DNA from: Escherichia phage RudolfBernhard_Bas96
Direction: 5' to 3' (one strand)
Length of the DNA: 64,000 nt
Sequence record: PQ850623.1
Shown piece by piece: positions 58,026-60,767 of this stretch (its first letter is position 1; every line of letters starts with the position of its first letter). A model generated the notes under the pieces. That model searched no databases, had not been told where the DNA came from, and was given only the letters and a program-made list of their open reading frames with translations. The position numbers and the translations under genes are program-made.

Positions 58026-58532
58026 TTACTTACTTTCCCTAGCCTCTACCGGCATATTCGGTTGATTATTGTACTTGCCATTGTAATTAGCAGGCTCTTG
58101 AACCAGATGAAATAATACTTGAGCTATCCCAGCACCAGCCGGGATATGCAGTTTCTTGCGACCTTGATAGACCAGTTCGAGGGTAAGATACCCTTTCCAT
58201 CCTGGTTCTATTACGGTATTGAACACTGATAATGCACGCCTTGCCCAGGTAGATTTATCGTGAACGATTGCTACACAGGAAGGGGACATGTTGAACTTCT
58301 CAATTGCTGAAGCCAATGCGAATTTACCGAAGTGGCGTTTAACAACCCCAGCATCGACAGTCTTCACCATTGGAATCAACCCAAATAAGCGATAGAAGGT
58401 GATGTCTTGTTTGATACGAATATCATAACCGGCTTCACCTAATCCATAACTTACACCATGCTCGGATACCTTACGGTCTGGTACATCCAGCAATTGAGAT
58501 GAACGGTATAGAGAATTACCATTAACAACCAT
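58026..58532 (-). CDS. dCTP deaminase / dUTPase-superfamily protein
   Basis: IEPGWKGYLTLELVYQG and GAGIAQVLFH resemble Dcd/dUTPase-fold motifs. Confidence 0.5.
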   Translation of the reverse strand: MVVNGNSLYRSSQLLDVPDRKVSEHGVSYGLGEAGYDIRIKQDITFYRLFGLIPMVKTVDAGVVKRHFGKFALASAIEKFNMSPSCVAIVHDKSTWARRALSVFNTVIEPGWKGYLTLELVYQGRKKLHIPAGAGIAQVLFHLVQEPANYNGKYNNQPNMPVEARESK

Positions 58533-59707
58533 TATTTCATTCCTTTAGGGATGTGAACTACCCCCCCAAAAGGTACGGTAGCATTAGGATTATTCAGAAC
58601 ACACCAGATGATAGGGATATCAAATGGCAATTCTTCCATTGGACGAACATACATATCGGAGAATACGATTGCAGCGGTTGGCTTATTCTTAATAATCCAT
58701 TCACGCACTGGCTCAAGGTTTGTGCCACCACGACCAGTAATCTTAATCTCTTCAAAAGTATCTTCTTCAGTGATGTCTATTTCTTCTTGGATAATATCGT
58801 CGAAGGTAATAAGGGTCATCTTCTTAGGATTGAACTGGCTCTTAACGTAGGCAACCTCTGAGTTAAAACGCAGAGAGTCAGCACTACTAATAGAACCAGA
58901 TACATCCTCAAAGTAGGCTAAGTGTCGTAAGCGTCCTTCATCATCTTCCAGCGATGGTAGATAGATATCAGTGAAACGACGGTTAGGTCTGGCCCACGTA
59001 TAGTGTGTATCATCAATGTCGGTAAAGAAGTTCAGCAGGACTTCCTGCCAAGGAACCACTGGTTTAAGGAATTGGGTAATTACCTCTTCCATACGACCAG
59101 CACCCTTACCTGGCATCATTCCACCAGCCATCTTCTGGCTTTGCATTGCACGAACTACGTTGTTGACAACAGCGCCCTGGGACTGCCCCGAAGAGGGGGC
59201 TTTCATGTCGCCAGCAAGACCTGCTCCAGCACCCCCTGACGGCTTCTGCCTTTTCTGAGGGTTCTTCATCAAGTCGTCGTAGATGTCTTCTTCGACCCAT
59301 CCTTTATATTGAGGATCTTTGCAAATGCCTTCGTCAATACCGGTGAACTTGTAACCATCCTCTTCTAACTGAAGGTTAATGAAGTGGTCACATGCCTGGT
59401 TCCAGACTTCCGGGTCACGGCTTCCACGACGGATGCCATGTAGATATGCCACATGCCAGAGTTCGTGCATTAGCACTGTTTCTCTTGTATCGGGACACAT
59501 CCATATAAAGAAGTCTGGGTTGAAATGGAGTTCTATCCCATCAGTACATGCAGTGGGACAGTCTTCACGTTTCCATGAGAACTTAAGACTACACAGCAGT
59601 GAACCAAAAAACGCTGCACTACGTCCGAGAAAGGCGTTAGCTTGGATCCTGTCGTACTCACGCATGAGTTGTTCATCACTAAGTGTGTGCTGAGGTATCT
59701 GGTTCAT
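58532..59707 (-). CDS. vWA-domain protein with N-terminal HExxH metallopeptidase-like domain (N4 gp25-like partner of the AAA+ ATPase)
   Basis: HELWH zinc-binding-type motif; vWA MIDAS-like FEDVSGSIS; start at ATG 59705-59707, 7 nt after the ATPase stop (track start 59941 would overlap the ATPase by 227 nt). Confidence 0.55.
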   Translation of the reverse strand: MNQIPQHTLSDEQLMREYDRIQANAFLGRSAAFFGSLLCSLKFSWKREDCPTACTDGIELHFNPDFFIWMCPDTRETVLMHELWHVAYLHGIRRGSRDPEVWNQACDHFINLQLEEDGYKFTGIDEGICKDPQYKGWVEEDIYDDLMKNPQKRQKPSGGAGAGLAGDMKAPSSGQSQGAVVNNVVRAMQSQKMAGGMMPGKGAGRMEEVITQFLKPVVPWQEVLLNFFTDIDDTHYTWARPNRRFTDIYLPSLEDDEGRLRHLAYFEDVSGSISSADSLRFNSEVAYVKSQFNPKKMTLITFDDIIQEEIDITEEDTFEEIKITGRGGTNLEPVREWIIKNKPTAAIVFSDMYVRPMEELPFDIPIIWCVLNNPNATVPFGGVVHIPKGMK

Positions 59708-59714
59708 GTTGTGA

Positions 59715-60767
59715 TTATCCGTGAATGTAACGAGAGATATTGGCAGCAGCCTTACGCCACTCAGGGGTAGCCTGAATTTCTGGTAATGCTCTGCCCACTG
59801 TACGGAAGTACAGAATCTTATGGGTGAACGTTTTAAAGCGTTCAATGTACTGAAGAACATCTGTGAAGTTATCTTCAGTAGTTTTGTTAGCCAGATGGTT
59901 AACGGTAGCCCAACACAGGTTATTATCTTCAGGCAATGCACAGCCCAGAGGGTCTTTGACTACCTTCTCAATCGTAATCATACGATTGTATACCTGAGTG
60001 AACTGAACAAACTCTACGGCCTTACCTGGTGTAACAAAACCGCTGTAGTACAAGGAATCTTCATCAGGCAGAGCACCTTCTGGTTGGTTCTTGAGGTCTT
60101 TGTTAATGAAGTCCCAGGTACGTGGGCAGCAGAATGTCTTGTTCTTATGGGCGGGGTCGAAGTCGTGTAGATAGCCAGGGTTAGCATGTAAGAATGCAAC
60201 CAGACGCTCATCCCATTCTTGCGGAATCATTACGTCTTCAACAAAGATGTCGAAGTTAAGTTCCATTTCAAAGTGAACAACACGAGACTGCATTGCAGTA
60301 CCCAGTGGGTTAACGATAGCACGGTCAGTAGCTTTGTTACCGGCACAGATAATCATCACATTAGGGTGAAGTTTTTTCTGTCCAGTCATACGGTCTAGAA
60401 TCAGTTTGTATGCAGCAGCTACTACTTCTTTCTTAGCTGAGTTGAACTCATCAAGGAACAGGAGCCAGCCATTATAACCTTCTGGTACTTCATCCCCCTC
60501 GATAGGGAATAAGTCAGCAAAGGGAATAAACTCTGCACGGTCACCTTTACGGAATGGTAGACCAGACAAGTCTTCCGGGGCAGAAGTAGACAGACGATGG
60601 TCAATCAGCTTCATACCAAATTCTTCTGCAACAGAACGAATAATTGCAGACTTACCCATGCCTGGTGATGAAGTCAGGAATGGTACGTTACCTGCTTGCA
60701 AGGCACGGATAATAAAGTTACGGGCTTGGCGTGTATTACATACAGTCAAGGAGTCAATGCTCGCCAT
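59715..60767 (-). CDS. MoxR-like AAA+ ATPase
   Basis: Walker A SPGMGKSAI, Walker B LFLDEFNSA (MoxR-type DE-x-N). Confidence 0.65.
   Translation of the reverse strand: MASIDSLTVCNTRQARNFIIRALQAGNVPFLTSSPGMGKSAIIRSVAEEFGMKLIDHRLSTSAPEDLSGLPFRKGDRAEFIPFADLFPIEGDEVPEGYNGWLLFLDEFNSAKKEVVAAAYKLILDRMTGQKKLHPNVMIICAGNKATDRAIVNPLGTAMQSRVVHFEMELNFDIFVEDVMIPQEWDERLVAFLHANPGYLHDFDPAHKNKTFCCPRTWDFINKDLKNQPEGALPDEDSLYYSGFVTPGKAVEFVQFTQVYNRMITIEKVVKDPLGCALPEDNNLCWATVNHLANKTTEDNFTDVLQYIERFKTFTHKILYFRTVGRALPEIQATPEWRKAAANISRYIHG

Follow-up and report, generated by a model that had tools for sequence, protein, structure and literature searches.

In the 64,000-nucleotide stretch of Escherichia phage RudolfBernhard_Bas96 analysed here (PQ850623.1; the whole stretch is called the window below), two adjacent minus-strand genes fill the interval 58532-60767 exactly: an upstream gene for an AAA+ ATPase of MoxR-like type, and a downstream gene for a protein that joins a putative HExxH metallopeptidase domain to a von Willebrand factor A (vWA) domain. 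They are the orthologues of gp24 and gp25 of phage N4, a known and annotated core-gene pair of known architecture. On balance, and with moderate confidence, we favor the reading that gp24 and gp25 form a two-component, ATP-driven module for protein remodelling and cleavage, with a general role in mobile elements. A sequence-only reading, made by a model, had placed such a pair here, and the pair is borne out, outer coordinates included. That reading had staked itself on domain searches, and these confirmed it (DUF2201_N, DUF2201, AAA+ structural affinities, and the vWA fold); it was real, correctly interpreted, and already known. What is added here is a link to plasmids and genomic islands that may be under-appreciated, together with the recognition of a widespread mislabel of the peptidase-vWA protein.

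Domain architecture of the pair

The 391-residue gp25 orthologue comprises an N-terminal putative zincin domain with the HExxH motif, a glycine-rich linker modelled at low confidence (residues ~150-260), and a C-terminal vWA domain. Pfam assigns DUF2201_N (PF13203, "putative metallopeptidase domain") to residues 17-253 (E 2.7e-55; 188 bits vs a cutoff of 23.2) and DUF2201 (PF09967, "VWA-like domain") to residues 263-386 (E 1e-33). The two motifs that the sequence-only reading had assigned to this single protein, HELWH and DVSGS, are both present and invariant in homologues: H81, E82, H85, and D107, like the metal ion-dependent adhesion site (MIDAS) residues D268, S270, S272, T329, and D351, are unchanged in all 69 phage homologues (47-85% identity). 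Conservation extends well beyond these phages. In a distant set of 68 bacterial, plasmid, and distant-phage homologues (~28% identity), the first four residues stay conserved and the five MIDAS residues are retained in at least 96%. H90 is conserved at 97-100% in phage and bacterial homologues, and W238, R240, P241, N242, R243, and R244 at 94% or more in both groups alike.

The C-terminal domain has a vWA fold; fold searches return vWA matches that include NorD and the 60 kDa subunit of Mg-chelatase (chain 2x31_A). The N-terminal domain has a predicted order of three strands, a helix bearing HExxH, and then a helix bearing D107, and compared with the usual topology of zincins we judge it to be zincin-like. 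The third zinc ligand may be either H90, five residues past H85, or D107, on the next long helix. Joint Genome Institute (JGI) labels on homologues read "predicted metal-dependent peptidase." The peptidase domain had been singled out earlier as a notable addition to a MoxR-vWA pair, a view that does not survive: the fusion of an HExxH putative peptidase to a vWA domain is the standard, fixed architecture across the family (a profile search against 1.84 billion representatives of clusters at 50% identity gave 22,208 matches at E ≤ 1e-3), and it has been described in jumbo phages (PMC7824862).

In the gp24 orthologue, an AAA+ core (residues ~1-170) is followed by a long C-terminal domain made of helices (172-348). 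Its motifs were checked in 68 phage homologues; taken together, the phage sets for the two proteins span 47-90% identity. Across the family, conservation of the Walker A and B motifs, N144, R162, and R216 is 88-100%. N144 and R162 do not vary among the phage homologues, nor in 48/48 of a non-N4-like set (46 bacterial, one plasmid, and one jumbo phage), and from their positions in the AAA+ fold they are probably the sensor-1 residue and the arginine finger. Residues of a predicted helix-2 insert (D56, R58, P64, D66, G69, and P71) are likewise conserved family-wide; as possible counterparts of the helix-2 beta-hairpin and the pre-sensor-1 hairpin of the MoxR-like (helix-2-insert) clade, the AlphaFold2 model places strands 70-74 and 77-81 between beta2 and beta3, at a predicted local distance difference test score of only 52-66, and a strand 131-133 before beta4. 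The quoted motifs of both proteins are kept in 85-100% of the ~28%-identical bacterial and plasmid homologues, and the motif and domain matches of the pair are, judged on sequence, not due to chance.

The earlier designation of this protein as a MoxR-type ATPase stands in part. The Walker A GMGKS and Walker B DEFN are there, and the affinity to CbbQ, NorQ, and midasin is evident: the solved structures nearest to the model come from AAA modules of dynein and midasin and from CbbQ and NorQ, both MoxR proteins, and the top PDB sequence match is a midasin AAA module (E 1e-4). By curated thresholds, however, the window ATPase, a divergent phage protein, falls outside strict MoxR membership; Pfam returns only generic AAA (E 2e-6), with AAA_5 at 17.7 vs 22 bits and no AAA_3 match. 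Bacterial orthologues (profile E ~1e-50) exceed the AAA_5 threshold at 27-30 bits, with AAA_3 under its cutoff of 27 and bpMoxR sub-threshold in one homologue, and some homologues carry the JGI label "MoxR-like ATPase." The label "MoxR-like, AAA_5 type" is justified for the window protein. NCBIfam gave no match for either protein, and a chelatase identity of the BchI/BchD or CobS/CobT type was rejected on the absence of Mg_chelatase, CobT, or CbbQ_C matches from the window proteins in Pfam and NCBIfam.

Orthology and annotation

The window phage is a Gamaleyavirus (Schitoviridae, N4-like) with 94.8% nucleotide identity to Escherichia phages ST4 and vB_EcoP_PhAPEC7; the window region is 90-94% identical to G7C and other members of the genus. 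The RefSeq record of PhAPEC7 describes the pair as "ATPase, similar to gp24 of N4" and "VWA-like domain-containing protein, similar to gp25 of N4," and places it between the genes for the RNA polymerase (RNAP) II subunits and those for dCTP deaminase and ThyX. These annotations, the same gene order in the window, and the nucleotide identity together establish orthology and synteny with N4 gp24/gp25. Both proteins also match phage protein families strongly (PHROG 1297, E 3e-132; PHROG 1314, E 2e-143).

A 469-residue open reading frame (ORF) with a GTG start (58532-59941), offered by a mechanical ORF list, was dropped for its 227-nucleotide overlap with the ATPase gene. The true start of the peptidase-vWA gene is the ATG at 59707, 7 nucleotides past the ATPase stop codon, and is accepted because a 391-residue coding sequence is annotated in PhAPEC7 and homologue lengths agree. 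Given this short gap, and since no Shine-Dalgarno sequence is evident ahead of the downstream gene, the two genes are likely to be translationally coupled.

The peptidase-vWA protein belongs to PHROG 1314, which bears the label "HNH endonuclease," and this label has spread to many GenBank and RefSeq records of N4-like phages. That identity was rejected: DUF2201_N and DUF2201 are the sole Pfam matches of the 391-residue protein, and it lacks an HNH domain; a genuine HNH_3 protein is encoded elsewhere in the window. Going by its domain content, the label is a propagated mis-annotation, and phage annotation pipelines should correct it.

Distribution on phages, plasmids, and islands

The pair's standing in N4-like phages is well documented. 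The gp24 gene (listed as "unknown" or "AAA+ ATPase") and the gp25 gene ("vWFA domain") number among the ~14 genes that make up the core of all N4-like phages (PMC4193335 Table 3; PMC7650795 Table 2). The sequence-only reading had them conserved in N4-like early regions; the conservation holds, but in N4 both are middle transcripts, not early ones (PMC4193335).

The family is not confined to these phages. By tblastn, the peptidase-vWA protein occurs in 687 phage records—N4-like phages of many host genera, jumbo phages, and rV5-like phages—and on 94 plasmids, 57 of them predicted to be conjugative or mobilizable. Among 80 loci from bacterial and archaeal genome assemblies, ~10 of them N4-like phage contigs or inserts, ~65 have a same-strand homologue of the ATPase upstream. 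The pairing of the ATPase with a MIDAS-bearing vWA gene is kept in N4-like phages, in jumbo phage phAPEC6, and on a conjugative plasmid. Between the two genes, 48 loci carry a further conserved one, whose product of ~300 residues is alpha-helical, as at 4994-5932 of locus L016 and 7887-8939 of locus L084; these 48 comprise bacterial islands and one conjugative plasmid. The middle gene has no Pfam or NCBIfam match, and its product is likely to be a third subunit or a client of the system. The bacterial and plasmid cassette is often followed by genes for RNase HI (19 loci) or a Sipho_Gp157-like protein (27 loci). When the window was searched, no homologue of the middle gene, of Sipho_Gp157, or of RNase HI turned up.

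On a Burkholderia pseudomallei conjugative plasmid (MOBH, MPF_T), the ATPase, middle, and vWA genes lie directly upstream of type IV secretion system (T4SS) genes. Chromosomal cassettes are flanked by a PRTRC system (Prok-E2_D, ThiF-type E1, and PRTRC_E), which is catalogued as mobile-element-associated (PMC3318190), and by a phage-type integrase, PcfJ, an ATP-dependent DNA ligase, a DUF4942 methyltransferase, Mom, a RES toxin, a RecD-like helicase, and an extra beta-clamp. Recurrent cassette neighbors matched 43 Pfam families, and among the 25 of these that are listed there is no capsid, portal, or terminase family.

Two further observations concern the phage side of this distribution. The rV5-like Escherichia phage V18 encodes a full-length peptidase-vWA homologue (3435-4895 of its sampled locus) with SHEVGH and DVSGS, and no ATPase homologue was found within 3.5 kb of it; the gene for the partner may lie in another part of the genome, or that lineage may be able to dispense with it. 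In addition, N4-like gene blocks with the ATPase, the vWA gene, and DNA-metabolism genes lie inside large bacterial contigs of a Roseococcus metagenome-assembled genome (296 kb; L003), the isolate Mesorhizobium yinganensis (727 kb; L004), and a Dyella sp. (123 kb; L007), and the first two blocks also carry RNAP2, dCTP deaminase, and ThyX. N4-like phages are generally regarded as strictly lytic; these blocks are either integrated N4-like elements or chimeric assemblies.

Proposed mechanism and competing explanations

A mechanism consistent with this architecture can be outlined. The gp24 protein, a MoxR-like ATPase of the AAA_5/CbbQ-NorQ/midasin type, would presumably form a hexameric ring, and gp25 would act as both its adaptor and its effector, with the complete MIDAS metal site gripping an acidic residue of a client. 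The ring might then pull or twist the adaptor-client complex, much as NorQ acts on NorD, and midasin through its MIDAS domain; the fused zincin-like domain could cleave the client thereafter, or the ATPase could serve to unmask the HExxH domain. Precedent for such a mechanism comes from NorQ-NorD (PMC13036017) and from the general MoxR-vWA model of Kaur et al. (PMC7159879). The client, whether a host protein that is conserved or a protein of the element, may be processed for establishment or replication in a newly invaded cell, or for host takeover.

The principal competitor is a role in virion morphogenesis, in which the pair would serve as chaperone and protease, assembling a virion structure while the peptidase trims structural proteins. 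We regard this as rather unlikely, although virion assembly remains a serious rival. It has a precedent in the MoxR/vWA pair needed for tail development in the Acidianus two-tailed virus (PMC7824862, section 3.4.5), the pair is core alongside structural core genes in all N4-like phages (PMC4193335, PMC7650795), and a Hoc-like decoration gene lies just upstream in the window. However, a terminator separates that gene from the pair's operon, the late structural module is far off (PMC4193335), and the operon, of the middle phase, includes genes for dCTP deaminase and superinfection immunity. The homologous cassettes beside T4SS genes on conjugative plasmids, and those on integrative islands whose listed recurrent neighbors include no capsid, portal, or terminase family, also count against it. 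It is because cassettes occur on plasmids and islands where no virion genes appear, together with the middle-phase expression and the neighbors of the pair, that a virion-specific role appears less likely than a general mobile-element role; sharing with plasmids and islands narrows the hypotheses towards intracellular establishment or replication and away from virion assembly.

It is also conceivable, and somewhat more doubtful, that the pair is a dedicated counter-defense machine that recognizes and destroys a host immune protein. A parallel would be ArdC, a zincin-containing plasmid anti-restriction protein presumed to act in that way. An occurrence on phages, conjugative plasmids, and islands would suit such a function, as would neighbors of the establishment or anti-restriction type (DUF4942 methyltransferase, Mom, PRTRC) and, in the phage, host-interaction genes (Rap1a/Tai4-like and superinfection immunity). 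Yet anti-defense genes are usually accessory and variable, and core status with strong conservation across N4-like phages of very different hosts is atypical for them; a narrow anti-defense function is disfavored because of the core-gene status of gp24 and gp25. PADLOC gave no significant match, and literature searches on Schitoviridae with vWA, and on MoxR with anti-defense, returned nothing on the gp24/gp25 system.

Least probable, in our judgment, is metal-cofactor insertion or enzyme activation after the manner of NorQ/NorD, CbbQ/CbbO, CoxD/CoxE, or the chelatases, for instance to mature a metalloenzyme of nucleotide metabolism: NorQ and CbbQ are the nearest characterized MoxR structures, NorD and the Mg-chelatase subunit are among the vWA matches, dCTP deaminase and ThyX are encoded downstream in the window, and phAPEC6 has thymidylate synthase 1.6 kb downstream of its pair (6461-7390 of its locus), but this explanation would leave the family-wide invariant HExxH domain unaccounted for, the window proteins have no Pfam match to CbbQ_C, CobT, or Mg-chelatase, and no metalloenzyme is common to the plasmid and island contexts.

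Several points weigh against a general remodelling and cleavage module. Searches of PDB sequences with the peptidase-vWA protein gave no meaningful match: the protein sequence and a profile of the N-terminal domain alone returned nothing, and the family profile returned three chance-level matches (E 0.19-0.78). Two fold searches likewise yielded vWA matches and no zincin structure. The window ATPase scores under the Pfam AAA_5 cutoff, as noted above. The middle gene is absent from the window, and therefore the phage and plasmid systems may differ in their client. Iyer et al. proposed virion assembly and processing for the jumbo-phage version of the system (PMC7824862), and the strict core-gene conservation in N4-like phages fits a housekeeping function—replication or morphogenesis—better than counter-defense. 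Finally, literature searches found no experimental work on gp24 or gp25, in agreement with the earlier statement that the phage function is largely unknown, and a search on "DUF2201" gave nothing relevant. The CRISPRi-ART paper contains no data on N4, and the "gp25" named in it comes from a different phage.

A more specific version of the mobile-element reading can be put forward, and we hold it only tentatively, as an outside chance: gp24/gp25 may be the phage two-gene form of an ATPase/X/peptidase-vWA cassette common to lytic phages, conjugative plasmids, and integrative islands, an ATP-gated protease that would cleave a conserved protein of the bacterium or one belonging to the element and so let incoming DNA establish or replicate. 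Such a cassette, if real, would be an "establishment" machine of mobile elements and as such a functional class of its own, not described before; the presence of two universal core genes in the Schitoviridae would then have an explanation. Phages of the N4-like group, all of which carry the two genes in their small core set, are plentiful in samples from gut, soil, and marine sites, and phage-therapy collections make use of them.

Operon and neighboring genes

The pair is proposed to be co-transcribed in a middle-phase operon with genes of nucleotide metabolism and host interaction. The operon is bounded by predicted intrinsic terminators that match the PhAPEC7 annotation (Table 1), and its order is as follows: two small ORFs, a signal-peptide protein, the ATPase, the peptidase-vWA protein, dCTP deaminase, an HNH_3 endonuclease, a 70-residue ORF, and a superinfection-immunity protein. 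A scan for sigma-70 promoters was set aside: its matches were no more than chance would give, and N4 middle genes use the phage RNAP II.

Table 1. Positions in the window of the gene pair, its motifs, the flanking terminators, and neighboring genes
Feature	Position	Strand	Remarks
ATPase gene, N4 gp24 orthologue	59715..60767	minus	350 aa
Walker A GMGKS, residues 36-40	60648..60662	minus	Translation; G38, K39, and S40 invariant in 68 homologues
Walker B DEFN, residues 106-109	60441..60452	minus	Translation; D106 and E107 invariant; context LLFLDEFN
Probable sensor-1 Asn144 to candidate arginine finger Arg162	60282..60338	minus	Conservation
Peptidase-vWA gene, N4 gp25 orthologue	58532..59707	minus	391 aa
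HELWH, residues 81-85	59453..59467	minus	Translation; on predicted helix 72-87
RPNRR, residues 240-244	58976..58990	minus	Family-wide conservation; directly before the vWA domain
MIDAS DVSGS, residues 268-272	58892..58906	minus	Translation and conservation
MIDAS T329	58721-58723	minus	
MIDAS D351	58655-58657	minus	
Intrinsic terminator upstream of the operon	61532..61554	minus	9-bp stem, 6 GC pairs, T-run; PhAPEC7 terminator in the same place
Intrinsic terminator at the operon end	56829..56851	minus	Prediction; coincides with an annotated PhAPEC7 terminator
Hoc-like virion decoration gene	61605-62438		Just upstream of the operon, with the terminator between
Signal-peptide protein gene	60802-61128	minus	108 aa
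HNH_3 homing-endonuclease gene	57456-58022	minus	
Superinfection-immunity gene	56926-57222	minus	98 aa, membrane protein; last gene of the operon
ThyX gene	55038-55982		A few kb downstream of the pair

Several of the neighbors merit comment in their own right. The signal-peptide protein encoded directly upstream of the ATPase has a weak, sub-threshold Pfam match to Rap1a (E 7e-4), a family of immunity proteins against type VI secretion system (T6SS) amidases, and some GenBank records label it Tai4; a phage-borne periplasmic protein resembling T6SS immunity factors would be unusual. The HNH_3 gene, with dCTP deaminase on one side and the small ORFs on the other, has no counterpart at that position in PhAPEC7, which of the annotated relatives examined is the closest, and the nucleotide match to relatives begins only at 58072. 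The last gene of the operon encodes a membrane protein that matches Pfam Imm_superinfect (E 3.5e-16). In phAPEC6 as in the N4-like window, a thymidylate synthase gene follows the pair downstream at a distance of a few kb, a recurrent link to nucleotide metabolism.

Comparison with known systems

More distant likenesses are to systems that share the core design. Ternary conflict systems with VMAP, iSTAND, FtsH, or beta-propeller components (PMC7159879) have the same MoxR-vWA core, with effectors fused to the vWA protein. As described by Kaur et al., however, these are host defense systems with defined third components, none of which is present in the window operon; PADLOC on the window gave no significant match, with only a DolB hit at 0.004 on the ATPase, and membership of the pair in this class was therefore rejected. 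Midasin (Rea1/Mdn1) also joins modules of the AAA_5 type to a MIDAS domain, which grips a client for extraction, but its six AAA modules all lie in one giant eukaryotic polypeptide, and it has no peptidase. NorQ/NorD and CbbQ/CbbO likewise pair an AAA+ ring of the same structural clade with a neighboring MIDAS-bearing vWA partner (PMC13036017, PMC9976466). NorD and CbbO lack the peptidase domain, and their roles lie in metal insertion or Rubisco activation; the window ATPase differs from NorQ and CbbQ in its much longer C-terminal helical domain and in having no Pfam CbbQ_C match.

Closer relatives share the whole architecture. The DUF2201_N + DUF2201 proteins of bacterial plasmids and islands, with an upstream AAA_5 ATPase, represent the same families in the same order and on the same strand as in the window, and they keep HExxH, D107, RPNRR, the MIDAS, the Walker motifs, and the arginine residues; most have the ~300-residue middle gene (48 loci) that the window is without. 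Jumbo phage phAPEC6 encodes a "MoxR ATPase" followed by an "N4 gp25-like protein," both of which match the profiles built here (E ~1e-41). The phAPEC6 pair is likened by its shared architecture to the N-terminal metallopeptidase-vWA protein with a MoxR ATPase partner that Iyer et al. (2021) reported from jumbo phages of group 2.2 (PMC7824862), although the accessions cited there may be other proteins; the jumbo-phage proteins have ~25% identity to the window pair and are longer (~440 and 475 residues).

Nearest of all are the N4-like phages themselves. The gp25 orthologue of PhAPEC7 is 98% identical to the window protein, and the extra HNH homing endonuclease downstream of dCTP deaminase sets the window phage apart from PhAPEC7. 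PhAPEC7 and the window agree in the order of the genes between RNAP2 at one end and dCTP deaminase and ThyX at the other. The window pair is orthologous to gp24/gp25 of N4, and nothing substantive distinguishes it from the N4 system.

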